Part shown: positions 40,525 to 58,255 of the stretch, piece after piece
Numbering within the stretch: position 1 is the stretch's first letter
Layout of the letters: each line of letters starts with the position of its first letter
Source of the DNA: Sedimenticola sp.
GTDB taxonomy: Bacteria > Pseudomonadota > Gammaproteobacteria > Chromatiales > Chromatiaceae
Assembly: GCA_027024025.1 (NCBI GenBank)
Contig: JALVTT010000157.1
Coordinates: forward strand, 128-64,127
DNA: 64,000 nt
Reading direction: 5' to 3'
Notes under the pieces: generated by a model
What the model was told of the DNA's origin: nothing
Seen by the model: only the letters and a program-made list of their open reading frames with translations
The model's database searches: none
Made by a program: the position numbers and the translations under genes

Positions 40525-42326
40525 TCAAGAAAAAGAAAGAAATGAACTTGGGAGAAAACCAAGGGCAATCGACCGAAGTGGACAAGTACGAGTTCGAACC
40601 CATTCAGGGGTACCCAATGCTGCACTGGAAAGGAAAGCGGCCGTTCCAGTCAACGCAGTATTACCCGGCGCAGCTCAAGGAAGTATATGGCCCAGAGGTT
40701 AAAGGGTGGCGGAACAAGATTTACTGGGGGGATAACCTTCAGGTGATGGGTCATTTGTTGAAGGAATATCGAGGAAAAGTTGATCTTGTTTATATCGACC
40801 CCCCGTATGACTCTAAAGCAGAATACAAGAAATCTATTTCCGCAAAAGGAAAGAAAACGACATCTGACCAGTCTTCGTTTGAGGAAATGCAGTATACGGA
40901 CATTTGGACTAATGACTCATACCTTCAATTTATGTATGAGAGGCTTATTATTGTTCGTGAATTATTGTCGCCTACGGGGAGCATTTATGTTCATTGTGAT
41001 TGGCATAAGAATCACTATATACGCTGCATTCTTGATGAGATATTTGGACCCAACCATTTCAGAAATGAGATCGCATGGCATTATTTTGGATTTAAGAGAT
41101 CTACTGCCAGAAAGTTTCCGCAGAAACATGACACTATATTGTCGTACGTTAAATCTGATGAATATACGTGGAACGTACAGTACAGACCGCATAGTGAAGA
41201 ATATGTAAAAAGGTTCAAGGAAGATGAGAACGGTCGACTATATAGAGATGATGTTAATCCTACTGGAGGAGGATCTCGTATAATATACTTAGACGAAGTG
41301 CCAGGAGATATTATTGACTCAACGTGGGATGACATTCCACCTGTTAACCCTGTAGCAAAAGAACGCCAGAATTATCCAACCCAAAAGCCGGAGGCGTTAA
41401 TTGAGAGGATAGTTGCCGCTTCAACTAACCCAGGCGATCTGGTATTTGACTCTTTTATGGGGGCGGGAACAACCCAAGCCGTCGCCATGAAACTTGGCCG
41501 TCGCTTCATCGGTGCGGACATCAACCTTGGGGCCATACAGACTACCACCAAGCGTCTAATTAAGGTGGCTGAGGAGCTAAAAAACAATCAAAACGACCTT
41601 CTTGATGCAGAAGAACAACCCACCTACTACACCGGGTTTGAAGTCTACAATGTCAACCACTACGACATCTTCCGCAGCCCGGTAGAAGCGAAGGAACTAC
41701 TCATCGAAGCCCTGGAGATCCAAAAGTTGGAGACCAGCAATATCTACGATGGCGAGAAGGATGGCCGCATGGTAAAGATCATGCCGGTCAATCGCATTGC
41801 GACCAAGGCCGATCTGAACGACCTTATCGCCAACTTGGACTACAAGGCCTTCGAGCGCCGCCAAGCCGAACATCCCACCCGGCCGGTAGAGAAGCTACTC
41901 ATCGTCTGCATGGGCCACGAGCCTGACTTAGCAGCGACGCTGCAGAACGAGGTGCCGTTCCCTCTGGATATTGAGGTGGTGGACATCCTGCGTGACAAGT
42001 CCAACCTGGAGTTCAAGCGCGATGCCGAAGCCAAAGTGATGGCCAAAAATGGGAAACTGATCATCGAACAGTTCTACCCCATGAACCTGCTACAGAAGCT
42101 CAGCTTGATGAAGGAGAATGTGGAAGACTGGCGCGAGCTCGTAGAATCAGTGATGGTGGACTGGAACTACGACGGGGCGGTACTGGAGCCGGCCGTCGTG
42201 GATCTACCCGACAAGAATGAGCTGGTCAAAGGAGAATACGAGATTCCCGAAGATGCCGGCACCATCATGGTAAAGATCACTGACCTGCTTTCAGAATCCC
42301 TGGAAGTGGAGGTTCAATATGGCTAA
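40521..42326 (+). CDS. mod: Type III-like DNA methyltransferase (Mod; beta-class N6A/N4C)
   Basis: Motif IV (DLVYIDPPYDS) precedes motif I (FDSFMGAGTTQAVAMKLGRRFIGADIN), with a variable region between them. ATGA overlap with the helicase gene. Confidence 0.85.
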   Translation: MIKKKKEMNLGENQGQSTEVDKYEFEPIQGYPMLHWKGKRPFQSTQYYPAQLKEVYGPEVKGWRNKIYWGDNLQVMGHLLKEYRGKVDLVYIDPPYDSKAEYKKSISAKGKKTTSDQSSFEEMQYTDIWTNDSYLQFMYERLIIVRELLSPTGSIYVHCDWHKNHYIRCILDEIFGPNHFRNEIAWHYFGFKRSTARKFPQKHDTILSYVKSDEYTWNVQYRPHSEEYVKRFKEDENGRLYRDDVNPTGGGSRIIYLDEVPGDIIDSTWDDIPPVNPVAKERQNYPTQKPEALIERIVAASTNPGDLVFDSFMGAGTTQAVAMKLGRRFIGADINLGAIQTTTKRLIKVAEELKNNQNDLLDAEEQPTYYTGFEVYNVNHYDIFRSPVEAKELLIEALEIQKLETSNIYDGEKDGRMVKIMPVNRIATKADLNDLIANLDYKAFERRQAEHPTRPVEKLLIVCMGHEPDLAATLQNEVPFPLDIEVVDILRDKSNLEFKRDAEAKVMAKNGKLIIEQFYPMNLLQKLSLMKENVEDWRELVESVMVDWNYDGAVLEPAVVDLPDKNELVKGEYEIPEDAGTIMVKITDLLSESLEVEVQYG

Positions 42327-44940
42327 GCGCACCACCAGCGGGCTGGATCTCAACTTCACCTTCTACGAGCACCTGCGGGCCTTCTATCTGGAGAACAAGG
42401 GCACCATCCGCAAGCACTACCGCGAGCTTTCGAAGAAGTTCCTGGATTTCAATGACCCGTCGGACGGCACTGCCTTTTTGCGCCTCCCCCAGTTCGAGGC
42501 GTTGGAGATGTACGTCTTTCTGAAAGAGTTTCTGGATAATCAGCCGGTGCACCGGCTGTTTCGTGACTGGGCGGACAAAACCGGAAAATTTGCTGGCCGT
42601 AAGGACATCGCCCTGCTGGAAGAGCTGAACAAGGACGACTATGAGGCGCTGTTCAAGCGTATGAAGAAACAGGCCCGCCTCTACCCCAACTACATCTTTG
42701 CGCTGACCATGGGCACAGGCAAGACCATTCTCATGGCCACCTGCATCTTCTACGAGTTCATCCTGGCCAACAAATTCCCCAAGGATAAGAAGTACTGCCA
42801 CAATGCCCTGGTGTTCGCCCCTGATCGAACCGTTCTGCAATCGCTGAAAGAGATTCAGACTTTCGACATGGCCAAGGTAGTGCCGCCCGAGTATGTGAAC
42901 TTTCTCACCCAGCACATCCAGTTCCACTTTCTGGAAGAGGCGGGCACCACCCTCAACACCCTGGATCGGTCGCGCTTCAACCTCATCATCTCGAACACCC
43001 AAAAGATTATTCTCAAGAAGCAGCGCAAAGAAAAGACCGCCGCTGACGAGCTGTTCGGCAAGGGGAAGCCCACCTTCGATGCCAAGAGCGTGTATGCCGC
43101 CAATGAAGATCTCTACGGCTTCGATATACCGGAAGACGAACAAGACCTGACCACCAATCAACGCTTCGACAAGTTGCGACGCTTGGAACAGTTGGGCATA
43201 TACATCGACGAAGCGCACCATGCGTTCGGCAAGAACCTAGCCAAAGACACTGGCAGTGTGAAAGACACTCGCAAAACCAGCCTTCGCAATACGGTCGATC
43301 TTTTGGCCAAGAGCCTCAAGGCCTCTGGTACTCATGTGGTGGCCTGCTTCAACTACACCGGCACGCCCTACGTGGGGAGGGAAGTTTTGCCGGAGGTGGT
43401 CTATGCCTATGGCCTGAAAGAGGCCATCGACAAGAGCTTTCTGAAAAAGGTTGTGCTCCACGGATACACCACCACCCGCGACAAAGAGTTTGTGGCCCTA
43501 GCCATCGATAACTTTGTAAAAGAGACCAAGGGTCTTCGTCCCGAGGGGATGTTGCCCAAACTGGCCTTCTTTGCGGCCACCATCGAAGAGCTGCAACAGC
43601 AGTTGCGGCCTGCGGTAGAAGAGGCGCTGACCAAGCATGGTATCCCGCTAGATCGCATACTGGTGAACGTGGGAGACCCGAAGCTCACCACCAACGACGA
43701 CATCCGGGAGTTCAACCTACTTGATTCTCCACGTTCGGAAAAGCAGTTCATTCTGCTGGTGAACAAAGGCCGCGAGGGCTGGAACTGCCGCTCGCTCTTT
43801 GGCGTTGGGCTTTTCCGTGAACCGAAATCCAAGGTATTTGTCTTGCAGGCCACCATGCGCTGCCTGCGCCAGATCGGTGACATCCAGCATACCGGACAGG
43901 TTTATCTTAGCCATTCCAACCTTGAGATTCTCAACGACGAGCTGCAACAAAACTTCCGCATCAGTGCCGAAGAGTTTGAGAACAGTGGTACCAACAAAAT
44001 TCGCGTGGAGGTGCGGCCGGTGCCACCGCCCCGAAAGATCAAACTCAAGCGCATTCATCGTAAATTCAAGCTGGAAGAGAAGAAGCCAACCAGGGGACTC
44101 AGTCTGGAGCTGGATAAGGCGGATACCGAACAGTACAAGTTACTTCACTATACGCAGGAAGGACTGGACCCAGCAGATGCTGCCAGAAAGACGCGTGGGC
44201 AACCAGAAGATCTAACGGCACTACGTGAGCGCCGCGTTTTCAGTGAGATTACACTGGTGGCAGAAATCTCCCGTTATCTGAATAAGCCCTGTCTGATGAT
44301 TCAGGAAGTGTTGGCTGGCACCGAAGAAGGCATAGACAAGATTCTTGAATATATAAACAGGTTCAACGAGCTACTCTATGATTGGATCATTCCGCGACTC
44401 TTCCATGCGCTCTACAAGATCACGCCAGAAGAAGAGACGGAGGAGTACGAGATCGAGCTCATCAAAGTCCCCGAGAAAGGTTACTATGAGGTATCTGCTG
44501 ACAAAGACAAGATTGTTAGAATGGACGACCCTAGCCTAAAGTCCCTACAGAAGGATCGCAGTTTTCACCTGGACACCTACTGTTTCGACTCCGGATCAGA
44601 GAACCAACTGTTCTGGGATCTCCTGCGCGAGCAGCGGGTAAAGAAAATCTACTTCACCGGGATGCTCACCCACGGCCAGTCTGACTTCTTCATTCAGTAC
44701 ATAGACCCGGACTCGCGGACGGTGCGCAGCTACTACCCAGACTTCTTGTTCTTGCGCGAAGAGCCGGATGGGACGGAAAAGTACGTGATAGTCGAAGTCA
44801 AAGCCGACAACCAGATCGACGACGCCGTCGTCCAGGCCAAGAAGGACTTCGCCCAACAGATTGCGGTGGCCAGCGGCATGGAGTACCGGATCATCAAGTC
44901 CACGGATGCGGACAAGCGAAACTACCGCGTGCTGATGTGA
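42319..44940 (+). CDS. res: Type III restriction enzyme Res subunit (SF2 helicase plus C-terminal PD-(D/E)XK)
   Basis: Contains LTMGTGKTILMA (motif I), YIDEAHH (DEAH) and a C-terminal YYPDFLFL...YVIVEVKAD. It overlaps mod by 8 nt. Confidence 0.85.
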   Translation: MAKRTTSGLDLNFTFYEHLRAFYLENKGTIRKHYRELSKKFLDFNDPSDGTAFLRLPQFEALEMYVFLKEFLDNQPVHRLFRDWADKTGKFAGRKDIALLEELNKDDYEALFKRMKKQARLYPNYIFALTMGTGKTILMATCIFYEFILANKFPKDKKYCHNALVFAPDRTVLQSLKEIQTFDMAKVVPPEYVNFLTQHIQFHFLEEAGTTLNTLDRSRFNLIISNTQKIILKKQRKEKTAADELFGKGKPTFDAKSVYAANEDLYGFDIPEDEQDLTTNQRFDKLRRLEQLGIYIDEAHHAFGKNLAKDTGSVKDTRKTSLRNTVDLLAKSLKASGTHVVACFNYTGTPYVGREVLPEVVYAYGLKEAIDKSFLKKVVLHGYTTTRDKEFVALAIDNFVKETKGLRPEGMLPKLAFFAATIEELQQQLRPAVEEALTKHGIPLDRILVNVGDPKLTTNDDIREFNLLDSPRSEKQFILLVNKGREGWNCRSLFGVGLFREPKSKVFVLQATMRCLRQIGDIQHTGQVYLSHSNLEILNDELQQNFRISAEEFENSGTNKIRVEVRPVPPPRKIKLKRIHRKFKLEEKKPTRGLSLELDKADTEQYKLLHYTQEGLDPADAARKTRGQPEDLTALRERRVFSEITLVAEISRYLNKPCLMIQEVLAGTEEGIDKILEYINRFNELLYDWIIPRLFHALYKITPEEETEEYEIELIKVPEKGYYEVSADKDKIVRMDDPSLKSLQKDRSFHLDTYCFDSGSENQLFWDLLREQRVKKIYFTGMLTHGQSDFFIQYIDPDSRTVRSYYPDFLFLREEPDGTEKYVIVEVKADNQIDDAVVQAKKDFAQQIAVASGMEYRIIKSTDADKRNYRVLM

Positions 44941-45139
44941 ACTGAGAGAACCAGAGCTGGAATGTTTCTCCCCACCTACTGTCGCCTGTAAAGAATGCCG
45001 GCACCGTCAAGCCCAGGCCGCCAGCGAACAAGAAAAAAACGACTCAGTTAATCAGGCAGGGGGTAATAGCCGTCTGAAATGGCCGGTTACCACGTTCCAG
45101 CGCCCATCGCCCCGAGGAGACACACGGTAAGTCCTTCCC

Positions 45140-46744
45140 TCAAGGCGTATCCCGTTTCCCCCGCAGCCGGCAACGCATAGTCGCTGGCCGACCACTATCG
45201 AAATATGGGAGCTCGATCTCCTCGTCGATGGTCGTACAGTAGTTCTCAGCAAACAGTTGCAAGTGCGCCGCATCCCGAGCCACATCAGAGTCGGCGGGGA
45301 GGTGCTGAAGAATGGCGTCACTCACAAACATGATGAACTTGCTGCGAGCTCGGGTTAAGGTCACGTTGAATCGTCTCGGGTTCAGAATGAATGCCTCTTC
45401 TGCGGCGACGAAATCGCGGTCAGCGACAACGTAGCTTGCTATCATCAGGTCCCGCTCCTGGCCCTGGAACCTGTCTACTGTATCCACGAATGGCGGTGGA
45501 TCCATGGGCATCCCAGCTGCGTCTACCAGGAGGTTTTTGATGGTAGACATCTGCGCCCGGTGAGGCGTCACGATGCCTAGATGCTCTGACCAGAACTGCT
45601 GGTCACCGGGGCCGTTGCCGTCCTGCTCAAGGATGCGTCGGTACAGCAGGGCAAGAGCCGTAACCATCTGGGCTTCAAACGGATTTGAAAGCGTCGACAT
45701 GTGAACGCCATAGCTGATGACGACCACCGGTATCTCCGGGTCGAGGATCCTTAGAAATAGATCACTCCATGGCAGGTTTGCCGGCCACCCATCCGGCGGG
45801 CTACCTATTGCAGGCAGAGCAATGCCGAGCCTTCGTTCTGGGAAAAACGCCTCGTATCCTTCGCTATAGAACCGCTCCTTGGGCCATCCAGAAATCTCCG
45901 TGTTTGTCCGGTAATTGCGATCCAGGGCAACAGGATCTTTGCCGTGGGTTTCCTGCATGTACGAGAAGATGCAATCGAAAAGCCCCTGAACGCTGTCTCG
46001 CATTTCGAATCCGTAGATCGGACCAAGCTGCTTGTGATCTCCAGCGAGGATTACATGCCCGTCTTCACGCAGAAGCAGGAAATAGGCTGCCGCGTATGCC
46101 ACCGGAACCTGCGATGCTTCGTCGATCACCAGGAGATCGAACCATCTGGCGACTGGAGTCCCATCACCCGAAACAACCTCTGCGAGTCGCCCAAGTTGCG
46201 TCCAGGTGCCACCAACCACCACACATTCTGTCCGCTCATGCATGGCTCCAGCCAGAACGCGTGCTGCCTGTGCCGTGCGAACAACGTCTTCGATGCATTC
46301 ATCGAGAGGAGGCTTCGCCGATTCGTTGCGCAGGCGCGCAATGCGCACATTGCCGGGCAGCTCGCCCAGGACAGAGGCGCGTTGGCCCAGCAAGTCCGCA
46401 ACTTCTCTCAGGACGTTGTCGATGGCGTTGTAATTGCTCGCGCCGACTCCGACCGTGATCGGTTCACCGCTCTGCCATGCGTTTTCTATCCAACCCAAAA
46501 TGACGCCAGCCAGCACGGTTGTCTTTCCGGTCCCCGGTGGACCCCACAGCAATGACAACCGGTCTGTGAACGAGCTATGAAAGGCGTCCGCTTGGCGGGG
46601 ATTGAAGGAGTGCTTCTGGTACTGTGCAACCTGGTTCAGAAGGTCCTCGACCTCTCCGTGGCTACGGGTGACCTGCAACTGCCCGGGCTCATACAGGAAG
46701 CCATGAGCGGGTTCTGTTCGGGGATATTGTACGCGCCTTGCCAT
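45140..46744 (-). CDS. Upf1/Dna2-like SF1B helicase (AAA_11/AAA_12 type)
   Basis: Contains WGPPGTGKTT, LVIDEASQV, LAGDHKQLGPI, DRNYRTN, IVTPHRAQ, VDRFQGQERD and FNVTLTRAR. ATG 46744 lies 2 nt after the upstream stop codon, behind a GGAGGAGGG Shine-Dalgarno sequence. Confidence 0.85.
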   Translation of the reverse strand: MARRVQYPRTEPAHGFLYEPGQLQVTRSHGEVEDLLNQVAQYQKHSFNPRQADAFHSSFTDRLSLLWGPPGTGKTTVLAGVILGWIENAWQSGEPITVGVGASNYNAIDNVLREVADLLGQRASVLGELPGNVRIARLRNESAKPPLDECIEDVVRTAQAARVLAGAMHERTECVVVGGTWTQLGRLAEVVSGDGTPVARWFDLLVIDEASQVPVAYAAAYFLLLREDGHVILAGDHKQLGPIYGFEMRDSVQGLFDCIFSYMQETHGKDPVALDRNYRTNTEISGWPKERFYSEGYEAFFPERRLGIALPAIGSPPDGWPANLPWSDLFLRILDPEIPVVVISYGVHMSTLSNPFEAQMVTALALLYRRILEQDGNGPGDQQFWSEHLGIVTPHRAQMSTIKNLLVDAAGMPMDPPPFVDTVDRFQGQERDLMIASYVVADRDFVAAEEAFILNPRRFNVTLTRARSKFIMFVSDAILQHLPADSDVARDAAHLQLFAENYCTTIDEEIELPYFDSGRPATMRCRLRGKRDTP

Positions 46745-46746
46745 GA

Positions 46747-49453
46747 TCAAACCCTCCTCCTTCTTCTCCTTTGCATCGGGGGAGGGTTGCCACCAATGGC
46801 GCGCAGCGCTTGCTCTATCCTTCGGCTGGAGAAGTCCTGGTACAGCGGATCGAGAACCATCGGCTGATCCATATCAAGAATGCCCTCATCTTGAGCCAGC
46901 CTAAACAAACCACTATTAGATGGCCTGAGCACCAGAAACGGGGGCTCATGCGTCGCTACCAAACGCACCATCTCAACCTGAAGTACTTTTCCAAGTGAAG
47001 CATTCACCATCCACTCTTCATCCAACCCGTATCCATCCAACAGATCCTTTGCTTCGTCGAACGATGATAGACCCAAGTGTATTCGCCACGGAACGTCGAG
47101 TTCGATGTCGGAGTCTTCATTGGATAATGCCAATAGAAAGTCCCCTTCATTTATCCTGGCATCTCGTGATGTGTGAGCAAACGTAAAGGCAAGGAGTTCA
47201 GCGCCAACATAACGGGAATCCGATCTGCGTACCCCTTTGATACAGTCCTCGTACCCCCCCCCCGATGGCTGGCTGAATCCCGCGAATTGAAAAGAAACGA
47301 GCTTCCCGCTCGTCAACGGGAAGTGCCCGGCGCTGTCGGTTCTCAATCTCCTGGGTTGCTACATTCAGCTTCTCGAAGGCGATGAGGCTGCGAGCACGCT
47401 CAGGGACCTTCATCTGCTTTGGTGGAGCAGAGCTGAACGGAGACTTTCGAAGCATAAGCCGGTCACGGTAATGCTCCCGTAGTCGCCTCACGATATGCTG
47501 CAGCGCTCGGAGATGGACGCGTGTTGCGTGCTTGACCCCCTCATAGAGCTCGTCTCGCGTGTATGGCCGCCACCGCGATGGTTGACCCGGAAACCTTGGG
47601 TCAAAATGTCTCAGAAAAATCTTGTCCTGCCATAACTCGTAAGCCCGCTCAAAGGGGATCTGGTCGCTCATGGGAGTGCTGAAGCCGAACGGCAGTTGGA
47701 ACCGGTAAGGGTCACCATTCTCGTTGCGAACGGGAAAGAGTGTGTTGGCTGTCTCGAACAGGGAATAATCATGCGCAATTGGAAGGCCAAGAAGCAGTCG
47801 GACGACATCCTTCACGATAGTACCCGGCTGAGACTTGAACAGCTCTGGGTCAGGCAAGAGATCGTCCGGTGGAAAGAGACGAATCAGCAGCTCTATCAGG
47901 TCCACGACCTCCGGGTGGTTCATGTGTCTCTCGAACATCCGCCGAAGCTGGCGGACCTCGAGCATGTCCCAGAGAAAGATATGGGATGAAAGGAGCTTGT
48001 TAAGCTCATTTCCTTTCTTACCCTGCCGTTTTAGGTGCTTGTTCTCCTCTCCTAATTCTTTGTTCTTCTCTGATACTTCTTCAAGCCACCGAGAGACGAG
48101 GGTGACGAACTCCACCAGGCGGGCCCGCTCTGTATCCGGGTTCATTGCGTCGACGCGGTCCACGACAAACACATGTTCTTCCGTTTGGGGTGGATCCCCC
48201 TGACTGCGGCCCGGTGGGAAGTACACTCGGGCGGCGCCCATGGCGAACGTAATGCCGGAACCGGGATCGAAGTGGACCGTAATGAAGATGTTCTGGTCGC
48301 TCCATGCAGGCATAAGTGAGCATTTGCGCCCCTCAATAACGACGGGCTCGTTGGTGTGGAGTGCTTCGGCTCGCACCAACAGAGCTGGACGATCAGCGCG
48401 AAGCTGGTGACTTGACGCTTCTGCGGCCTGCCACTCCGTTGTGCTGCCTCTGATGGCCTCCCTCAAGCTCTGCGTGGTCGCGATTCCGTTCTGGCGCAGA
48501 AGCTCGGCTTGTCCCTGATTGAGCCACGGCAGCCGGGAGAGATGGTCACAGTTCTCCGCCTCCTGCTTGCAGTATCGGACGTAGTCACATAGCTGGCACT
48601 TTGGCCCCACGTGCCAAGAGGCCTCTTCCGGTCTCTGCTCGAGAACCCGGAGTAGTCGTTCCTCGAAGAACTGCTTGACGTGGACCTGGTACACCTCGTA
48701 GGGGACCGGCACGAGGGTGTCCTGTAGGGCTGAAGTAACAGGGTCACTATCTCCTCTTGCTTCGTATTCACGAACAAGATTCCGGAAGGCGTTAGCATCA
48801 TGACTACCAGGCCAAATGAACCCCTCTGCGCTCACAGCGTATCGATCCGACAGGCCCTGTTCCGCCAATGCCGCCGCCAGCGAGAGCGCGTAGTAGGTGA
48901 CTTCCGTAAAATGGCGAAGGGAAGGCTCGGCCGCCATTTTCACGTCAATCACATGTAGCTCGAACTCCGGCACAGGATCCGGATCGCCGATAAGCGGATG
49001 TCCCGTGCCGCCGGCTCGAATCCATATGATGTCGGGACGGGCTCTTACGGTCTCCAAACCGTAGGTGTCGTATGCCTCTTGGAGACCCGGTGTGATATTT
49101 GACGGAACCTCGAACTCAGCTTCGATGATGGCAAATGGCGGGCTCTCACGCCGCAAGATTTCGAACAGGTTCTCGACCTTACCGAATGGCTTCCGACCAA
49201 CAAGCTCATCGACCTCTTCCTTCTCGACATACTCGACGGCGTCCGGCGGTGAAACGTCGATAAGATCCTGGTACTTGTCCGCCTCCCACCGACGCCCGGC
49301 CGCCTTGATCAGTTCGATACCGGGTCGCTTGTAGGTATCGGCTTCGATGCAGAGAGAGTCTTTTTCGGCGTCGGATGCCAGCCGAAATCGAAGAAAGCGG
49401 TCACAATCAAACTTGAATGTGAGCGCGAGCGTGCCTTTGTCCAGCCGGGGCAT
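46747..49453 (-). CDS. Large Cas4-like PD-(D/E)XK Fe-S nuclease with an RNase-H-like middle region (TM0106-family-like). As sequenced it is split into two frames (49453..47198 and 47346..46747) by a frameshift in a G10 tract
   Basis: Contains FKFDCDRF, PDIIWIR, ELHVIDVKM, TYYALSL and CQLCDYVRYC (a Cas4-type Cys4 arrangement), then an HhH-like LNQGQAELLRQNGI and IFITVHFDPGSG / HIFLWDMLEV. Both frames look like coding sequence on their respective sides of the tract. Confidence 0.7.
47254..47263 (-). repeat. Homopolymeric tract, G10 on the coding strand (C10 on the plus strand)
   Basis: Counted directly in gtaccccccccccgatgg. It lies within the 149-nt overlap of the two nuclease reading frames. 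Confidence 0.95.
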
Positions 49454-49454
49454 G

Positions 49455-51641
49455 TCAGTTGCCTCCTCGTTCTCTTGTGCGATAGAGTGCCGTGTGAAGT
49501 GGCACGGACTCGTCGTCTGCCTTTCCCAGGACCGCCGACGCCACAATCATGGCCCGTTCCAGGTTCAGGCGGTCTGGCTCTCGGAAGCCGATTCGTTTCT
49601 TATCGCCGAGTTCCTTGGCGTAGGCATCCGCACGGCATCTGGCATCGGCCATAGCGCTGCGCGGAACGACCACTGGACAGGACTCTCCACCGGGCGCCTG
49701 TGCATCCCTGCGGCATATGAATACGGCATCCCACTTGATGGTTCCATTGTAGGAATGAAGCCCCCCCTGACCCTCACCGCGAAGGGGCAGGACGGCGGTA
49801 CACCTGAATCCCGATCTGGCCAGCGCCTCGCCTACAGCATTCCACGCAGCAATGTGCTTGTGGTGATAGGTGAAGACAAAGACTCCATTCCGTTTGAGCA
49901 CACGCCGGCATTCGGAGAAGATCCGCTGGAGCCTTTCACGATAAACCGCAATCGACTCGTCGGCTCGGGAGGTCAAGGCGAGGTTCTCTCCGATAGGGAC
50001 CGCAAGGTGCGGATCATCGAATGGAGGTTCCGCCTCTCCAAGGGACTGGTGCCAGGCCAGGTAGAAGTCGGAGAGCTCCGAGTAGCTCAGGTTATCGAAG
50101 TACGGAGGATCCGTGAGGATGAGGTCGATGGTTCCATCGGGGATCTCGGCCAGATCCTCGGAAGTTTTTGTGCGTATGGAAGCTCTTGAGGAGCCGGTCA
50201 GGACCTGCCAGGGGTTGGCAGAAACCTCCGAGGCGTAAACGTGCTCTCCCGCCTTGGACGGAACGCGGCCGCCTTTCGGGTCCAACTCGGTCGGGGCCTT
50301 GGCAAACGCCACCGCCTTCGTGATCTTGCTGAGAGTGTTCGGAAACGTACCTCGCCCAATACCCTCGAGCCATGGATTGATTTCCACCGGCCTCGTGATG
50401 TGCCGGTAGGAATGGATTGAGAACATAGGGCTTACGCGGCGGTAGCCGAAAGCATACGCCGTGTACATGCAGTTCGTGGTGAGATGCTCGCTGAAGGCCA
50501 TAGCAAGGACGCGCCGGGCACGAGGCTCATCCACCGCTGCGATGGCCTTGCCAAGCAGGGTCAGATGTAGCAGCTGCCGGTCGTTGAAAAGGTCTCGATA
50601 CCTTCTGAAGCCGTGGATAATAGGTCGCTGGTCTGAGCGGCCATCTGTCGGGATCTCGCGCATCGGCGCAAACGGGCCCTCGGAGCCCTCAATCTCCTTG
50701 AGAAGGCGCGAGGCTTTTCCGTAGCGAATACGATCTCCTTTCGTCACCTTCTTGAAATGCCGCGTTACGCCACCTGGGTTTCGCTCGATGTATTCTTGGG
50801 CAAACAAGCGCCACGCCGGGGGCGTCGGACTATCTCCACGATCAGCGAGACCCGTTATGTCGCCACATGCGGGACAGCGAACCTTTCCACGATTGAGGGT
50901 GCCCCGTGCGATACGGGTCCGGGTCCCGCACGTACAGCGGATTTCCTTCCGCTCTATCGGAAGCTCGTGGACTTCGTGGCATGTCTTACAGAAGGCCCAC
51001 TGGAGCCCCTTCTCCTTGTTGGACGCCAACTGGAAATGCGGATGGATCTCGAAAGAGGTCCCGCAGGAACGACAGGTGCGACACTCCACCCAGAAGTGAT
51101 GCAAGACCTCATGCTCCCGGCCTTTGACTTTGGTCCTGTGGAAAGGTGCCAGCTGGGCAGCAATGGAGGCGCAGAGCTCGGCAATCTCCTCGCTCTCGGG
51201 ATCGTAGGCAGCTGCTTCCAGTTCAAATCTCGTGATGAACGTGGCTACCGGGTCGATGTCGTATCCAATCACGTGTGCACCACAGCGCATGGCTTCCACC
51301 AAGCTGGTTCCCCCTCCGACGAAGGGATCCAGGACCACCGCGCCGTCCAGAGGCACCTCACCCAGGAAGGTGTCCCAAAAGCGGTTCGCTTCATCAGCAT
51401 CAAGCGAAAGACCGGTCAAGATTGACCGGAACTGAGAACCAAGGCGTCGAGCGAACCAGCGGTGAACCCGATAGAGCGGGTTCGTGCATTGACCTTCCCG
51501 CATGGCAAGTTCAGCGATTTCGGCAATCGGAATTGCGCCCGACTCCAGTAGGGTCGTGTCCAGGAAACCGTGCAAGTGAAAGCGTGGGACGTCCTCTCGA
51601 GCCCCCCGGCGCTTCTGGGATGTGGATTGCACGAGCGTCAT
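49455..51641 (-). CDS. DUF1156/COG1743-type DNA methyltransferase with Zn-ribbon insertions
   Basis: N-terminal YRVHRWFARRLGSQFRSIL (the DUF1156 signature WWARRP-like), motif I VLDPFVGGGTSLVEA, CxxC pairs (CRTCRSCG, CKTCH, CTCG, CPACG) and motif IV ILTDPPYFDNLSYSELSDFY. Confidence 0.8.
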   Translation of the reverse strand: MTLVQSTSQKRRGAREDVPRFHLHGFLDTTLLESGAIPIAEIAELAMREGQCTNPLYRVHRWFARRLGSQFRSILTGLSLDADEANRFWDTFLGEVPLDGAVVLDPFVGGGTSLVEAMRCGAHVIGYDIDPVATFITRFELEAAAYDPESEEIAELCASIAAQLAPFHRTKVKGREHEVLHHFWVECRTCRSCGTSFEIHPHFQLASNKEKGLQWAFCKTCHEVHELPIERKEIRCTCGTRTRIARGTLNRGKVRCPACGDITGLADRGDSPTPPAWRLFAQEYIERNPGGVTRHFKKVTKGDRIRYGKASRLLKEIEGSEGPFAPMREIPTDGRSDQRPIIHGFRRYRDLFNDRQLLHLTLLGKAIAAVDEPRARRVLAMAFSEHLTTNCMYTAYAFGYRRVSPMFSIHSYRHITRPVEINPWLEGIGRGTFPNTLSKITKAVAFAKAPTELDPKGGRVPSKAGEHVYASEVSANPWQVLTGSSRASIRTKTSEDLAEIPDGTIDLILTDPPYFDNLSYSELSDFYLAWHQSLGEAEPPFDDPHLAVPIGENLALTSRADESIAVYRERLQRIFSECRRVLKRNGVFVFTYHHKHIAAWNAVGEALARSGFRCTAVLPLRGEGQGGLHSYNGTIKWDAVFICRRDAQAPGGESCPVVVPRSAMADARCRADAYAKELGDKKRIGFREPDRLNLERAMIVASAVLGKADDESVPLHTALYRTRERGGN

Positions 51642-52933
51642 GATCCACCTACCTTCGCAGCTGGCAAGCTTTCCGTGCGTAGATCAATCAAACCTTGGTC
51701 AAGACCGTTCCTAGGACGCATAATCTTAAGAGGTAGTGGAACCCAATACTCCTTCCCTCTACTACGAACTACCAGCCCTCCATCCAGTACGTCGGTCAAT
51801 TCTGTTGTCTTGGGCATTGGCTGCCCATGAAAATACCTCATTGCGACCCTTGCCCACTTCCTCCGGAACTCCGGCGTATCCTCCGGATTCTTCATCATGG
51901 CGATGAGCTGGCGTTCCAACCTTGCCTTGCTGCGCTCCTTCGCCCGCTTCTCGTCCGTCTGCGGCACCAGGCTCACTCCCTGCGCTTCATTGATGAAATT
52001 CACGAACCCCGTGATATTCGCCTTCTGCCCCGGCTTGTCCAGCAGGTAGGCGTCGAGATCTGGCTGGACGGGTACGCACCCCTCTGCCCGGAGCACCAGA
52101 TCCGCCGCCGCCGAGAGCACCATGCGGACGCTCCGCAGCGAGGTTTTCCCTTCCTCCAAACGAGCCATCAAACGCTCGCGGTAAGCATGCCACAACGCTC
52201 CTCCGGCGGTCGAGGCGTCAATTCTCTCCCCCAGCTCCCTGATACGCCGCCGTTCGGAATCCTCCTCCCGCGCCTTTTCATCCACCTTCAGCCGTCCGGA
52301 TTGCTCCATCCACTGGATCGCCAGCCTTACCCGACGCAACCCCTCCGCATGAAAGCGCGCCACCAGTTCCTTGTAGTCCGGGATGCAGCCCCATTCGGCG
52401 TCCATCTCCTGGAAGAAGGCAAGGTACTTATTGATCCGGATGGCCGCCACGTTCGCGCCCCGCCGCGCCTCCAGCCAGCGCCCGAACACCCCAAATTCCT
52501 CGGCCAGGCCATTCCCAAGGCCCGCCTGACAGATCGCAATCCGCTTCTCCAGCAAATCCTTCCAGTAGCAATCCTCGCAACGGTCTCCCCGGCCTGCTGG
52601 CATGGGGCTTCCGCATTTCAAGCAGGAACGGATTCCCTCATCCAAGCAAGGCCGACACAACAACCGTCCATCATCCGCCTTTATCAGCCGCCGATGTCTG
52701 CCGCACGCAGGGCAGGTAGCGTGATCGGCCCGTTGACATACGGGACAGACCGGCTCATCAATGCCCAGCCGCAACGCACGCGCCAAGTGCCGAGACATGC
52801 GCCCACAGCGCGGGCATGGCTCCGGCTCCCGAAACCAGGGAACACAGGCGTTGCATACGGGACCTTCCGGCCTGCGCAGCCCCGTGGGCCGCCCCTTGCG
52901 ACCGCACCGGATACATGCCTCATCCGGCCTCAT
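51638..52933 (-). CDS. Cys-rich multi-Zn-ribbon protein of unknown function, in the fifth position of the tns operon (TniE-like by position only)
   Basis: At least 7 CxxC pairs lie in the first roughly 130 aa, followed by a helical C-terminal half. ATGA overlaps occur with tniQ upstream (start taken at ATG 52933) and with the methyltransferase downstream. Confidence 0.6.
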   Translation of the reverse strand: MRPDEACIRCGRKGRPTGLRRPEGPVCNACVPWFREPEPCPRCGRMSRHLARALRLGIDEPVCPVCQRADHATCPACGRHRRLIKADDGRLLCRPCLDEGIRSCLKCGSPMPAGRGDRCEDCYWKDLLEKRIAICQAGLGNGLAEEFGVFGRWLEARRGANVAAIRINKYLAFFQEMDAEWGCIPDYKELVARFHAEGLRRVRLAIQWMEQSGRLKVDEKAREEDSERRRIRELGERIDASTAGGALWHAYRERLMARLEEGKTSLRSVRMVLSAAADLVLRAEGCVPVQPDLDAYLLDKPGQKANITGFVNFINEAQGVSLVPQTDEKRAKERSKARLERQLIAMMKNPEDTPEFRRKWARVAMRYFHGQPMPKTTELTDVLDGGLVVRSRGKEYWVPLPLKIMRPRNGLDQGLIDLRTESLPAAKVGGS

Positions 52934-54042
52934 GCCAACCCTGCCTTGCGTTGGAGCCGTCGCCACATGCGCTCGACAGCCGCCCTCGAACGTGGGGCAT
53001 CGCCACTCCCGGCCCTTTTCCTTCGCGTTCGGCTCCGTTCTGGCAAAGCCGCCACCACCGGCTCCAGCAGCGCGGGCAGGCGGTTGCGAGTGCGAAAGGA
53101 ACGCACGGTCATCCCGGCCTCCAATGCGGCCTCGGTCATCTCACCAAAGCCTGTGGACGCAAGCCGCACTGCCGGAACAATCAGGCGCGCCCGATCGTCC
53201 AAGGGCAGCGCCTCGATGCTCAAAGTCAAGACAGGACGCTCAATCTCTCCGGCATCCGGCAATAAACTGTCCACGAACGCCCGCCGCACCACCAAGTCGC
53301 AGCGGCGCAGCCAACCCGCGAAGAAACGCGCAAGATCGAACCATTCGTGCGCCGGGACATCCTTGCCACCCCAACGCGCCATGCCCGTTCCGGCGGCCTC
53401 GTCGCAAGTCTTCTGCATCGCCAGCAACTCATCTCCGGCATCCTCCGGTTGCGTCTCGCGCAGGTCGCCATCACACAGGGCGCACTGGGCCAATGTTTCG
53501 TCCTCCGCCGCGAGGCGATGCGGGAGCACCGGTCCGCCGCAATGGGGGCAGCGATCCAGCAGCACCGTCCCGTGCTTGTTACAAGCGACATGCCACGCCA
53601 ACCGCCAATGCAGCCGCAAAAAGGGCTTGCCATCATCCTCCTTCAGGCAAACAGGGCAATATTGCCACCCCTGTACGCAGCGGCGGTTCCTGCGCCCAAA
53701 CGGGCGCACCCAAGGCCAAGGCTCATGCAACTCCGGCACCTGGCCAGCCACGTTCACCATAAGCGGCGGCAGCATCGAGGCCCGGAACGCCTCCGCTGCG
53801 ACACCGCATTCCTGTTCCAGGACGGCCAGCCTGTCATCGGGCATACCCCGGTCGCAGTCCATCGTCCACACGCGCCACTTGGGCCACAACTCCCCCGTGA
53901 GCACCAAGGGATCGCACCCCTGCGCCAAGGCCGCCCGGACCAGCCACCCGGAAAACGCCTCGTCGGGGAGCAGCGGCACCGGCAATATCCAACGGGCGTT
54001 CAGCGGACGACTTCCCGGATGCCACGAGTAGGCTTTACCCAT
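52930..54042 (-). CDS. tniQ: TniQ/TnsD-family target-site selection protein
   Basis: N-terminal ILPVPLLPDEAFSGWLVRAAL (TniQ pattern) and the Zn finger YCPVCL...CNKHG...CPHCG. The start is taken at ATG 54042. Confidence 0.75.
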   Translation of the reverse strand: MGKAYSWHPGSRPLNARWILPVPLLPDEAFSGWLVRAALAQGCDPLVLTGELWPKWRVWTMDCDRGMPDDRLAVLEQECGVAAEAFRASMLPPLMVNVAGQVPELHEPWPWVRPFGRRNRRCVQGWQYCPVCLKEDDGKPFLRLHWRLAWHVACNKHGTVLLDRCPHCGGPVLPHRLAAEDETLAQCALCDGDLRETQPEDAGDELLAMQKTCDEAAGTGMARWGGKDVPAHEWFDLARFFAGWLRRCDLVVRRAFVDSLLPDAGEIERPVLTLSIEALPLDDRARLIVPAVRLASTGFGEMTEAALEAGMTVRSFRTRNRLPALLEPVVAALPERSRTRRKRAGSGDAPRSRAAVERMWRRLQRKAGLA

Positions 54043-54899
54043 GACTTCGCCTCCACGATTTCTGGGGTGATGCATTCGATACCCGACTGGATGGCCTCGG
54101 TGGCGCACTCGATCAGCAGCCGGTGCAGGTCGCCCAGGTTGCCGCCACTGATCGCATGCAGCCGCCGGGCCAGCTCCGGGCGGTTCAACCCCGAAGGCTT
54201 GCGCAGCGGCAGGACCTGTTCGAAACCGACGAGCAGCCGTACAAACGGCTTGTCCAGATCCCACAATCCAAGCCGCACCACGTCGAACCGGCTGGCGTGC
54301 TGCGGATCGGAATGGAGCACCCGCACCGCCTCCGCCGTGCCCACCCCGACGATGGGGATGCCCAGCTCATTGCACAGCAGCTTGATGGCGTTCATCACCT
54401 CCCGCTGCTTGACCGGCGTCCCGGTCAGCAGGGAATGGAACTCGTCGATGACCAGCATGCGGACATGGCAGTACCGCATCAGGTGGATGAGCTGGTATCG
54501 CATCTTCGGTGCCGGGTCAGTGGCCCGGTAGGGGGTCCTGAACCGCTCCAGGATGGAAACGTACAACCCCTTCTCATCAGGCTTTGGCGGCGCCTCTGCC
54601 AGCACCACGGGGATGTGCGGCTCTCCCTCCTCTTCATCTACATGGGACTGACCGTGAAGCTGAACGAAGCGGCGGACCAAGGTGGTCTTGCCGTTGTTTG
54701 GCTCACCGACAATCAACAGGTTGAGCATCCGGGGCCGGGTGGGCATTTCCATCAAGGCGCGCATCCGCCTGATGATCTCGTTGGCCTGCGGATAGCCCAG
54801 CCAGCGAGGTTCGTACAGGAACCGGATGCGCTCCTCGTTGGATAGCCCGGCAACGTGCCGGAAATCCGGGTGAATATGGGAAAGATCCATGTCCGTCAT
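54000..54899 (-). CDS. tnsC: TnsC/TniB-type AAA+ transposition ATPase
   Basis: Walker A GEPNNGKTTL and Walker B MLVIDEFH. ATGA overlap with tnsB. Confidence 0.85.
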   Translation of the reverse strand: MTDMDLSHIHPDFRHVAGLSNEERIRFLYEPRWLGYPQANEIIRRMRALMEMPTRPRMLNLLIVGEPNNGKTTLVRRFVQLHGQSHVDEEEGEPHIPVVLAEAPPKPDEKGLYVSILERFRTPYRATDPAPKMRYQLIHLMRYCHVRMLVIDEFHSLLTGTPVKQREVMNAIKLLCNELGIPIVGVGTAEAVRVLHSDPQHASRFDVVRLGLWDLDKPFVRLLVGFEQVLPLRKPSGLNRPELARRLHAISGGNLGDLHRLLIECATEAIQSGIECITPEIVEAKSWVKPTRGIREVVR

Positions 54900-56773
54900 T
54901 CGATCTCACCAAGGGGTTCGTCAACCTGGAAAATGTCGTCATCCGCCTCCGGGACCTGCGCGGATACATCCTCCGCGGCCTGCGTGGACTCGACGGTAGC
55001 GGCTCGCTCCCTGTGATCCCGGCGTTTCTGGAGACTGCGCCGCGCCTTCTTGGTACGGGCCGCCGACTCCCGCGTCCGCTCGCGCAGCTCCTCCAGAGCC
55101 TCCAGAACGCGCCGCTCGTCCACCGCCTTCATACCTTCCTCCCGCGCCCGGTCACGCGCCTGCCGGTACTCCCATACACTCATTGGCGGCAGGGCCTGGT
55201 TGGCGAAGGGCACACGGAAATACTGGCGTAGGTCTGGATCGAAAAACCAAACCACACTGATGTCGCGAGGGTCGCGGCGGAAGGTGAACTTGCGCTTGGA
55301 CTTCGGATTGTCCGGGTCCGGCGCGCCGATCCAAGGTCGCAGCACGTCGGCATAGTAAGCCAGCCCCTCGATGGTCACACCATCCGGCTGGATGGTGCGC
55401 CGGAAACGTGGCAGGAAATCCAGCAGGAACGCCACCCGGTCGCCAGGTATCTTGGGCAAGCCACGCCCCGTTTCCCTTCCATCGCCAAACAGCCCGGTTT
55501 CCCACTTCTTGAGGGGCGGCATGCCGATCCCCGAGTGGATACGCAGGTGATACACCTTGCAGATCAGGGTCGCCAGCCATGCCTCGAACTCCTTGAGGGT
55601 CATCACCGCATGCTTGTCTGGCTGGTACTCTCCACGCTCCTTGATCGACGAGAAGGTGGTTCCCGGCAAGTCGTGGATCTCCTTGAGCAAAGTCCCCAGC
55701 AAGCGCTCGATGTGCCCCCCGAAGCGCGGCTGGCGGACGGGCCGGTACTCCAAGTTGATGCCGTGCAGCGCGCAGGCGTCGCGAAAGGTCGAGGAACGGA
55801 ACTCCGCGCCGTTGTCCACATGGATCGTGTCCATGAGGCCATATACAGGCCACTCCAGATCCTCCAGCCCAAGGCGCGCCAACCATTCGTCCTTCGGCAG
55901 TACCGCGTGAGCTACGCACATCGCCACGGAGGTCTCCGACGGGGCGTCGAACGAGACATAGAGACCAGCCACCATACGGGAGAAAACATCCATGGCCAGC
56001 GTGACCCAGGGCCGCCCGATGGGCTGTCGGTACTGGTCGTCCACCAGTACAACATCAACCGGCGTGTGGTCGATCTGCACATAGGCGAAGGGATAGTCCG
56101 CACCAGGGAAGGAACCCGGAGCAGGCGCGTACCGCTCCTCGGCCTCCTTTCTACGCCCCCGCCGCTTGAGGCGTTCACGGGGATGGATGGCGGCGACCCT
56201 GGCGCGAATGGTGTTGGCGTGGGGCGGCTGAAGGCCCATCTCCAGGCAACGCCGCCGCACCTCCAGAACCACTTTCTGCGCCGGTGCACGCTGGCGGGTC
56301 AGGTACACCGCCTCGATCACCTCGTTGATGATGGACTCCACGTCGTCCGGCAGGCGGTTCTCGCCGCGCCTGCGCCCGCGCTTTCGGGGTAGCAGAGCCT
56401 CCAAGGTGCCCGCCGCTTCGTAGCGGTTGAGCCAGCGGTAGAGGGTGGTGAAGTGAACGCCGACCTCGCTGGCGCGACGCTCGATCTCCTTCCGTCCAAT
56501 GCCAGGCTCCAGCAGCGGACGTATGGCCTCCATTCGGAAACGCGCAGCCTCAAGGTCAGCCTCGTCGATCTCCTCCAGTTCGCGGAAGGGGGCGGAATCT
56601 TCGGATACGGGAGCCAGATCGACGACGCGCAACGCCTTCTCCCGCCCGGTGGCCGGGTCCAGGCCGACAACGGTCTCGTAGTCGAGGATACTCCGGATCT
56701 CGTACACCCGACCATCGTGCAGCACCCGCCCACCAATAGACAGATCGAGAACGCTCCGTCCACTACCGCTCAT
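54896..56773 (-). CDS. tnsB: TnsB-type DDE (Mu/rve) transposase
   Basis: Contains QIDHTPVDV (D), IHVDNGAEFRS (D) and GGHIERLLGT (E), with N-terminal helix-turn-helix regions. Confidence 0.9.
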   Translation of the reverse strand: MSGSGRSVLDLSIGGRVLHDGRVYEIRSILDYETVVGLDPATGREKALRVVDLAPVSEDSAPFRELEEIDEADLEAARFRMEAIRPLLEPGIGRKEIERRASEVGVHFTTLYRWLNRYEAAGTLEALLPRKRGRRRGENRLPDDVESIINEVIEAVYLTRQRAPAQKVVLEVRRRCLEMGLQPPHANTIRARVAAIHPRERLKRRGRRKEAEERYAPAPGSFPGADYPFAYVQIDHTPVDVVLVDDQYRQPIGRPWVTLAMDVFSRMVAGLYVSFDAPSETSVAMCVAHAVLPKDEWLARLGLEDLEWPVYGLMDTIHVDNGAEFRSSTFRDACALHGINLEYRPVRQPRFGGHIERLLGTLLKEIHDLPGTTFSSIKERGEYQPDKHAVMTLKEFEAWLATLICKVYHLRIHSGIGMPPLKKWETGLFGDGRETGRGLPKIPGDRVAFLLDFLPRFRRTIQPDGVTIEGLAYYADVLRPWIGAPDPDNPKSKRKFTFRRDPRDISVVWFFDPDLRQYFRVPFANQALPPMSVWEYRQARDRAREEGMKAVDERRVLEALEELRERTRESAARTKKARRSLQKRRDHRERAATVESTQAAEDVSAQVPEADDDIFQVDEPLGEIE

Positions 56774-57422
56774 CGTCAGCCACCCAAACCATGGTGTCGT
56801 TGGTCAAGGGTTCGAACAGATCGCATTCGAGCCTTCCTGTAGCGACCAGATGCCAAGCCACAGCGATCCCGTGGGCCTTGCCATGTGGCCCCCACTTGGG
56901 AAAACAACAAGCGTCCACCAGCCGTCGGAAAGGCAGGCACCCCAAGCTCCGGGCCGTGTCGAGCAACCAATCCGCCAGATCCGTGTCCACGGCGATCTTG
57001 CGGTAGCGTGCCAGGAAACGCATGTTTTCCCACGCTTGGTCACGGACACGGCCCTCGTGCATGAGGCGGAACACGAACCCATTCTCCAGGCAGTACCGCG
57101 TGGCAGCGCGAAATTTTGGCTTCCACTTCTTGAGATTGCGAACCAACTTCTCTCGGGGTTTGACCTCGACCAGCTCGGAAGGCAAGTGCCGACCATACCT
57201 GGGCAATACGCCATGCTGCCGGTAATGGACGAGGTAATCCGGTGTGTAGGGGTGCTCGCTTCCGTTGGCACGGTAGCGGATGGTGACCGGCTGGGAGATT
57301 ACCTCGATAACCGAGCGGTCGGCTTCCAGACGGATGAGGAAGTCACGCTCCAGCGTGGATTCAAAGGCGATGGGCGTTTGACCCCGAAACAGGTAGATAC
57401 CCGAAACGCTCTGGCGCGTCAT
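56763..57422 (-). CDS. tnsA: TnsA endonuclease (restriction-enzyme-like 5'-end cleavage subunit)
   Basis: Contains FESTLERDF, YTPDYLV and ELVEVKP (an E...D...EVK catalytic pattern). ATG 57422 follows a GGAGGAAGG Shine-Dalgarno sequence. A GTG at 57485 is an alternative start. Confidence 0.85.
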   Translation of the reverse strand: MTRQSVSGIYLFRGQTPIAFESTLERDFLIRLEADRSVIEVISQPVTIRYRANGSEHPYTPDYLVHYRQHGVLPRYGRHLPSELVEVKPREKLVRNLKKWKPKFRAATRYCLENGFVFRLMHEGRVRDQAWENMRFLARYRKIAVDTDLADWLLDTARSLGCLPFRRLVDACCFPKWGPHGKAHGIAVAWHLVATGRLECDLFEPLTNDTMVWVADDER

Positions 57423-57485
57423 GCCAACCTTCCTCCGAGGCGGCCCATCAGAAACTTTGTAGTGGATTTTGGTATTCAAAACCAC

Positions 57486-57593
57486 CCTCCGTAGCAGCTA
57501 TTGACGTTAAAGTGTAGCATAAATCGACAGAATCATAGCCTTTAAGTTATTGAAATATTGTTTTGAGTGTAGCTTCTTTCGATAGAAATCACA
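57486..57593. repeat. Transposon right end with 3-4 TnsB-type subterminal repeats
   Basis: TGTAGC motifs lie at 57568-57573 and 57513-57518, with the variants CATAGC at 57534 and GTAGC at 57491. The terminus reads ...GAAATCACA. Confidence 0.8.
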
Positions 57594-57598
57594 GCAGC
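57594..57598. repeat. Target-site duplication, right copy (GCAGC)
   Basis: It directly abuts the terminal ACA and is identical to 33868-33872. Confidence 0.85.
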
Positions 57599-58255
57599 AG
57601 TCTGCCCCGGCCGGGCGAGATCTCGCTGGCCCACAATGGCGTGCTGTTCCTGGACGAGCTGCCCGAATTCGACCGGCGGGTCCTGGACGTGCTGCGCGAG
57701 CCGATGGAGACCGGGCACGTCGTGATCTCGCGCGCCGCGCGCAGCGCGCGCTTCCCGGCCCGCTTCCAGCTGGTCGCCGCCATGAACCCCTGTCCCTGCG
57801 GCCACCTCAACCAGCCGGAGCGACGCTGCGCCCAGTGCACCCCGGAATCGGCGGCCCGCTACCAGGCACGCATCTCGGGGCCGCTGCGCGACCGCATCGA
57901 CATCCAGATCGAAGTCCCGGCCATCCCCACCCGCGAGCTGATCGACCAGGCGGAACCCGGCGAGCCCAGCGCCCGCGTGCGCGAACGGGTGACCCGGGCC
58001 TGGGCCCGCCAGCTCGAACGCCAGGGCTGCGGCAACGCGCAACTCGAACACGCCGCCCTGGAGCGCCACTGCCGACTGGCGCCCCGCGAACGCACCCTGC
58101 TCGGCAACGCCATCGAGACCCTGGGCCTGTCCGCCCGCGCCTACCACCGCATCCTGCGCGTGGCGCGCTCCATCGCCGACCTCGAAGGCAGCGAGACCAT
58201 CCACGCGGCACACCTGTCCGAGGCCATCAGCTACCGGCGGCTGGACAAGGCCTGA
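57594..58255 (+). pseudogene. comM: comM 3' part (about 218 codons)
   Basis: In frame, it reads S-SLPRPGEISLAHNGVLFLDELPEF (Walker B) ...FQLVAAMNPCPCG... and continues to the stop codon. It joins seamlessly to 33021..33872 once the transposon and one target-site-duplication copy are removed. Confidence 0.9.

Follow-up and report, generated by a model that had tools for sequence, protein, structure and literature searches.

The closest precedent for the gene cassette described here is Bad, a DNA2-like helicase-nuclease of the bacterium Geobacillus stearothermophilus that consists of a single polypeptide of 1,245 amino acids (aa) (WP_053413574; Wilkinson et al. 2020, PMC7430649). Bad contains an iron-sulfur cluster, has single-stranded DNA endonuclease activity and processive 5'-3' helicase activity, and recognizes junctions between single- and double-stranded DNA, not sequences (PMC7430649). 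Its gene always adjoins one for a Type III Mod-like methylase and occurs sporadically across many groups, and its authors proposed a novel type of restriction enzyme by which DNA is unwound and degraded, leaving the cellular role open (PMC7430649). A literature search found no follow-up to that paper. Our subject is a set of three genes, encoding a DNA methylase, a nuclease and a helicase, that lie head to tail on the minus strand of a 64-kb stretch of Sedimenticola sp. DNA (the window). A sequence-only reading of the window had called this set a candidate undescribed restriction-modification-like defense module. The restriction-modification-like part of that proposal is, as a prediction, well supported by comparative genomics, whereas its complete novelty did not hold; "undescribed" was too strong given that Bad had already been proposed as a new restriction enzyme (PMC7430649), and the idea behind the cassette is not wholly new.

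The window cassette has the Bad-type layout of an iron-staple nuclease, a superfamily 1B (SF1B) helicase and an adjoining methylase, in separate genes here and with nuclease and helicase fused in relatives. As in Bad, the RecB-family nuclease with its four cysteines is N-terminal and stands ahead of the helicase, a long region lies between the nuclease and Walker A, and the distribution is sporadic but wide. The two differ in that Bad is one polypeptide accompanied by a Type III Mod-like methylase, whereas the window has split genes and a 728-aa DUF1156-like methylase; the fused relatives of the window family measure ~1,400 aa compared to 1,245 aa for Bad. We infer kinship with Bad from layout and context, not from sequence.

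Several other described systems share parts of this layout. In the DUF1156/DUF499/Snf2 "Type-1 BREX-related" systems (bioRxiv 10.1101/2025.10.09.681413), the methylase likewise has an N-terminal helical region, an HRWxARR-like motif, motif I, a large insert and DPPY, and the overall logic is restriction-modification-like. However, the window cassette has no DUF499 ATPase, its motor is SF1B and not Snf2/superfamily 2 (SF2), and its nuclease is of the iron-staple Cas4 type. With an unclassified nuclease and an AAA_11/AAA_12 SF1B helicase as partners, the cassette falls outside those systems, as anticipated in the remark that its partner set differs from a DUF499-type ATPase. Types I, III and ISP restriction-modification systems also combine a methylase, an NTP-driven motor and a PD-(D/E)XK nuclease, but they are driven by SF2 translocases or sliding switches, none of which unwinds DNA (PMC7430649), whereas an SF1B helicase drives the window cassette. 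Nhi (nuclease-helicase immunity; bioRxiv 10.1101/776245) is an anti-phage system that pairs a PD-(D/E)XK nuclease with an SF1B helicase; it differs in being a single gene with an HsdR-like nuclease, a DUF2075 helicase and no cognate methylase, and PADLOC gave no match linking it with the window cassette. The TM0106 family of RecB-like nucleases (TIGR03491) resembles the window nuclease in its implied layout, a Cas4-like nuclease followed by an RNase-H-like domain, while the window protein is longer by ~380 residues and is obligately paired with an SF1B helicase. No system of PADLOC-DB 2.0 (Dpd, Mokosh, Hma, MADS, BREX and PDC candidates) was matched with all of its core genes, which was the outcome that the sequence-only reading had expected of such a search, although a very recent name could lie outside this set of models. 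The literature on TM0106, PLuB and combinations of Pfam names was uninformative.

Results

A conserved nuclease-helicase pair with exchangeable methylases

The features of the cassette are as follows (positions are those of the window).

49455..51641, minus strand: DNA methyltransferase, 728 aa; PF01555 match and motifs; appears intact
47264..49453, minus strand: part of the nuclease gene before the frameshift, codons 1 to ~730; start ATG at 49453
47254..47263, minus strand (plus-strand C10): G10 homopolymer; shifts the frame of the nuclease gene (+1); nine mixed bases in close relatives
46747..47253, minus strand: part of the nuclease gene after the frameshift, ~170 aa; conserved beta-rich C-terminal domain
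45140..46744, minus strand: SF1B (Upf1/DNA2/Sen1-like) helicase, 534 aa from its ATG; AAA_11/AAA_12, all motifs intact

The spacer between the methylase and nuclease genes is 1 nucleotide (nt) (TGA-C-ATG) and that between the nuclease and helicase genes is 2 nt (TGA-TC-ATG). All three minus-strand genes and the 1- to 2-nt spacers given in the sequence-only reading were therefore seen, and every motif quoted there was located in the methylase, nuclease and helicase translations.

The nuclease family comprises at least 499 clusters at 50% identity, and scans of genomes and metagenomes yielded 109 loci from very many phyla. The helicase adjoins the nuclease downstream in all related loci that extend far enough, and in most of the distant relatives the two are fused into one protein of ~1,400-1,500 aa, with a nuclease-like region in the first ~870 residues and AAA_11/AAA_12 at ~920-1360. 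The window arrangement is a split form of this helicase-nuclease. A DNA methylase lies no more than 250 nt from the nuclease-helicase in essentially every locus with enough flank, the exception seen being a short contig (L077). At least four types of methylase occupy this place, namely, the window type of ~720 aa, N6_N4 methylases of 388 aa and 309 aa, and a Dam-like D12 methylase of 315 aa. The adjoining methylase is usually of the window type and upstream of the nuclease; Bacteroidota, Acidobacteriota and others have one of the two N6_N4 methylases or the Dam-like D12 methylase, and the methylase is downstream in some loci and on the other strand in some. Unrelated methylases are thus swapped around a constant nuclease unit, which is a restriction-modification signature. 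The neighbors of the related loci include the defense genes or systems AbiE, Hachiman, PglZ, SNF2, BREX, dGTPase and CRISPR-Cas. Co-occurrence of the trio across genomes and in defense islands, which the sequence-only reading had singled out for checking, was that of a conserved unit, present in many phyla and in such islands. Complete Escherichia coli genomes and phages gave zero cassette matches, and plasmids gave zero nucleotide matches to the window cassette and only five distant protein-level relatives.

Two variations on the arrangement were seen in single loci or groups of loci. Locus L120 (592-8831) encodes a relative of about the size of Bad (P0410; 1,276 aa, nuclease D153, Walker A K829). 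In place of the methylase, a 1,470-aa sacsin/NOV_C-like protein comes before it with a 4-nt overlap, and this locus may represent a different system built on the same helicase-nuclease. In gammaproteobacterial islands (L001-L004, 7524-7736), the gene for a 70-aa helix-turn-helix protein lies upstream of the methylase at a distance of ~100 bp; the window lacks this protein, which could be a controller protein or an island excisionase.

The methylase

The methylase scored 49.8 bits against PF01555 (cut-off 26.7), which places it among the N6/N4 DNA methyltransferases. Motif I (DPFVGGG at residue 105) is followed by a cysteine-rich insert of ~350 aa and then by motif IV (DPPY at residue 511; DPPYFDNLSYSELSDFY at 511), with cysteine pairs at 187/190(/193), 218/221, 236/238 and 256/259. 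Because of the DPPY motif, the enzyme is probably of the N6-adenine type. Its assignment as a DUF1156 methylase could not be upheld, given that it reached only 14.5 bits against PF06634 (DUF1156; E 0.039, cut-off 24) over residues 36-77, which include HRWFARR at 60, and 83.8 bits against NF042963, the NCBI equivalog for anti-phage DUF1156 proteins (cut-off 1000). It is a distant relative of the DUF1156-type methylases. PADLOC returned only partial generic matches for this protein (MTase_II, PglXI and HmaB).

The nuclease and helicase

Across 79 nuclease sequences of 28-97% identity, residues C17, C286, C289, C295, D141, D170, K172 and Y188 are invariant. They form the C...CX2CX5C, hPD and (D/E)xK pattern of an iron-staple RecB/Cas4-type nuclease, with CQLCDYVRYC at 286, and the same cysteine pattern has been reported in AddB, DNA2 and Cas4 (PMC7430649). 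Four fused relatives passed PF12705 at the matching position (25.7-27.6 bits; gathering cut-off 22), while the window nuclease and its close homologues gave no match to this family. Eight of 11 members matched TIGR03491 below the cut-off (E 2.5e-10 to 9e-3), the matches spanning the cysteine cluster and the helical segment after it; at 15-40 bits against a curated cut-off of 97.45, the family stays outside TM0106 proper. The PADLOC Cas4 model matched protein P0001 at E 0.018. Both the four-cysteine RecB/Cas4-type nuclease and the resemblance to TM0106 that had been noticed at the outset were borne out as distant homology, the former by the invariant residues and by PF12705 in relatives and the latter by the sub-threshold TIGR03491 matches. 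The window nuclease had nothing above threshold in the Pfam, PADLOC 2.0 or NCBIfam models, and a profile search of the sequences of solved structures with it gave zero matches.

The RecB/Cas4-type domain is followed by a helical segment, possibly a helix-hairpin-helix, then by an RNase-H-like domain and a helical linker. We modeled the full-length nuclease and its N-terminal part with AlphaFold2, with predicted local distance difference test (pLDDT) values of 67 and 84.8, respectively. In the N-terminal model, residues 387-510, which contain IFITVHFD at 389 and HIFLWDMLEV at 491, adopt a beta-beta-beta-alpha-beta-alpha topology, and D396, E442 and D496, invariant in the 79 sequences, are placed where RNase H has its catalytic residues. 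Foldseek, a check put forward in the sequence-only reading, gave only weak matches with the nuclease, to PIWI, EndoV and RNase H (E 0.065-1) and to one viral "PD-(D/E)XK" model (E 0.2). With reservation, we regard the modeled domain as RNase-H-like. Of the original "DnaQ/RNase-H-like" label, the RNase-H-like half is retained on the grounds of topology, invariant acidic residues and weak fold matches, and the DnaQ identity is not. Compared to its closest homologues, the window protein carries a lysine/glutamate-rich insertion of ~16 aa in a long predicted helix at residues ~455-487 (window ~47990-48090), and nucleotide alignments to all close relatives break there.

The last ~170 aa of the nuclease, originally considered an extension, are instead a conserved beta-rich domain present in all homologues. 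In the fused relatives, this domain directly precedes the helicase, and the equivalent residues of the P0001 model have pLDDT values of 80-89.

The helicase carries GPPGTGKT at 68 (Walker A lysine K74), DEASQ at 208, GDHKQL at 235, DTVDRFQG at 421 and RFNVTLTRA at 458 and matches the AAA_12 (7.5e-25) and AAA_11 (1.9e-15) profiles. Its best solved-structure matches are Upf1/NAM7, DNA2, Sen1 and IGHMBP2. The profiles, together with motifs I-VI, confirm the SF1B helicase with Upf1/Dna2 motifs that had been recognized by eye. In PADLOC, the matches of the helicase were to the Mokosh helicases and, at 4.6e-59, to the N-terminal part of DpdJ only (profile positions 39-504 of 2112). We considered membership in Dpd or Mokosh and rejected it, given that the generic SF1 core alone accounts for the matches (DpdJ, MkoA and MkoC) and the remaining genes of both systems are missing.

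State of the window copy

Deletion of one G from the G10 run gives a nuclease of 901 aa that ends at 46747, in line with the ~900 aa foreseen after repair of the frameshift. G10 is the sole homopolymer of at least 8 bases in the window. Since close relatives have nine mixed bases at this site, e.g., GGGAGGGTT, which code for Gly-Arg-Val, the window has gained one base (+1) here, in a G run that formed anew. The exact helicase sequence is present on five public contigs. The two of these that were compared, an ENA scaffold and the Logan assembly of run SRR13622959, both have the same G10, with zero mismatches over 4-5.7 kb. This recurrence in two other, independent assemblies argues against an assembly accident, and the local copy of the cassette is therefore most likely inactivated, possibly phase-off, with a working methylase kept.

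Whether the window module has gone further and is a dead remnant, in which an orphan methylase is left beside decaying partners and methylation is the only function, is about evenly balanced in our view. The frameshift is fixed in three assemblies, and the nuclease is similarly truncated in other loci (L025, L030, L032, L045, L048, L051 and L093). However, it is a single lesion; both halves of the broken nuclease gene keep their reading frame and conserved residues, the helicase and methylase are intact, and a 10-base homopolymer is able to slip back into frame. This explanation concerns the state of the window copy, not the nature of the system, and is compatible with a restriction-modification function of the family. 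In eight loci (the seven above and L064), either the nuclease gene is truncated or the methylase gene is split. The nuclease-helicase family appears to lose its restriction part commonly, and a broken nuclease or methylase in several loci is expected for decaying restriction-modification systems.

Mobility and genomic setting

The cassette is itself mobile and sits within a larger element, the parts of which are as follows.

45131..51708, minus strand: extent of the mobile cassette, from blastn comparison with L005, L008, L010 and L040-L044
33873..57592: Tn7-like transposon, 23.7 kb; TGT...ACA ends, 5-bp GCAGC duplication, splits comM
56763-57485: TnsA-like
54896-56773: TnsB/TniA
54000-54899: TnsC/TniB
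52930-54264: TniQ

Copies at 89-96% nucleotide identity were found in Methylacidiphilum infernorum, in metagenome-assembled genomes of Nitrospirae and Coatesbacteria, and in several metagenomes. The M. infernorum locus, at around 302.9-325.5 kb of CP000975, is intact. The homology runs from ~70 bp upstream of the methylase to the helicase stop, i.e., over the three genes only, and the cassette has spread horizontally as a 6.6-kb unit.

The surrounding element is Tn7-like in its TnsA, TnsB, TnsC and TniQ genes, its TGT/ACA ends and its 5-bp target duplication (GCAGC at 33868-33872 and 57593-57597). It separates the N-terminal (33021 to ~33872) and C-terminal (57563-58255) halves of comM, a Mg-chelatase-like gene, and its cargo has 48-58% G+C compared to 63-71% in the flanks. 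Its ends read TGTGA...TCACA, and GCTACA-type motifs repeat near both. That the trio is Tn7 cargo beside another restriction-modification-like module had been proposed from the start, and both the transposon ends and genes and a UvrD-Cas4/Mod/Res module were found. This second defense module (37609-44940, plus strand) is convergent with the trio and encodes a UvrD-Cas4 fusion of 971 aa, an N6_N4 methylase of 601 aa and a ResIII helicase of 873 aa with a C-terminal TnsA-like endonuclease domain. Hudaiberdiev et al. 2017 (PMC5704561) described the context of UvrD-Cas4, Mod and Res; a TnsA-like nuclease on the Res protein is unusual.

An open reading frame (ORF) of 442 aa (51638-52966, minus strand) has many CxxC pairs and no family match, and overlaps both the methylase start (ATGA) and the end of the TniQ gene. 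We considered this zinc-ribbon ORF as a fourth component of the cassette and rejected it, given that it never accompanies the trio in other loci and that it shares the higher-G+C part of the element with the transposition genes. Its product may serve the transposon as an accessory protein or as a second protein for target selection. Further uncharacterized cargo lies next to the left end of the transposon, on its inner side (33956-36201, plus strand), namely, a 582-aa ORF with no family match and a 166-aa staphylococcal-nuclease homologue (PF00565).

Discussion

Our comparison establishes an obligate nuclease-helicase pairing, fusion of the two in relatives, near-universal adjacency of a methylase and intact catalytic motifs. 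The cassette is a real, conserved and uncurated variant of restriction-modification. We consider it rather likely that it works as a three-gene restriction-modification-like system in which a split DNA2/Bad-like helicase-nuclease is the restriction component. In such a system, the methylase would mark host DNA, and this methylation would protect self DNA. Reasoning from Bad, we would expect the helicase to load onto unmarked DNA, move 5'-3' with ATP and unwind it, and the iron-staple RecB/Cas4-type nuclease to cut the displaced strand, the RNase-H-like domain possibly helping. The methyl mark would also be read by the system.

Several points weigh against this proposal. Defense, methylation and DNA cleavage are predicted functions for the members of the family, and Bad is likened to the cassette by layout and context, not by sequence homology. 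A search of the pLDDT 84.8 model with Foldseek gave no significant match (best E of 0.12 in the PDB and 0.024 among viral models), and the nuclease and RNase-H-like assignments therefore depend on sequence motifs and sub-threshold profile matches. A reader of the methyl mark or of a target sequence was not identified among the cassette domains, although the uncharacterized nuclease region ~520-900 could contain sequence recognition. More distant clades have other partners or none, as with the sacsin/NOV_C-like protein or the lack of a methylase within 6 kb.

The linkage to methylases could also reflect a methylation-linked defense other than simple degradation of unmarked DNA, either BREX-like exclusion or entry at DNA ends with methylated sites as "self" stop signals, like Chi for RecBCD/AddAB. 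Such a mechanism would fit the failure to find a target-recognition domain in the nuclease or helicase, the interchangeability of very different methylases, and the high processivity of Bad and its recognition of single-strand/double-strand junctions (PMC7430649). However, it is pure inference, with no methylated-base reader apparent in the proteins, and sequence recognition could reside in the same nuclease region ~520-900; we regard it as unlikely. We regard as still less likely a role of the cassette in the repair, recombination or replication of DNA, as a helicase-nuclease equivalent in bacteria to DNA2 or to AddAB end processing that mobile elements carry for their maintenance, with the methylase as an unrelated or regulatory neighbor. 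In its favor, the domain layout matches DNA2 and AddB, the Joint Genome Institute annotates members as "Dna2," some distant clades lie among metabolic genes and have no methylase, and the role of Bad was left open (PMC7430649). Against it, the methylase adjoins almost without exception in the clades of the window genes despite its varying family, side and strand, the family occurs sporadically and reaches 89-96% nucleotide identity between phyla, and the neighborhoods are defense islands. Varying methylases that almost always adjoin the same unit indicate a functional link, and the pattern is hard to explain otherwise.

Beyond the restriction-modification-like system itself, we tentatively suggest, as a possibility somewhat short of even, that the family forms a new class of ATP-dependent restriction enzyme. 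Its members would couple SF1B unwinding to degradation by a RecB/Cas4-type nuclease of the iron-sulfur kind, to which an RNase-H-like domain might add a second active site, and would rely on exchangeable methylases for self-protection. As the proteins show no evident sequence-reading domain, a processive motor might take the methyl marks as stop or "self" signals and not as blocked cleavage sites. To our knowledge, the well-studied ATP-dependent restriction enzymes are all powered by SF2 motors, which translocate or slide along DNA but do not unwind it. Defense-system censuses are blind to the nuclease-helicase family because its members are annotated as "hypothetical" or "AAA family ATPase." If our proposal is correct, a methylase-linked, DNA2-like motor for unwinding and degrading DNA would represent a further class of restriction with a different mechanism and would give a cellular role to the Bad-type enzymes, which are biochemically characterized but functionally orphan.

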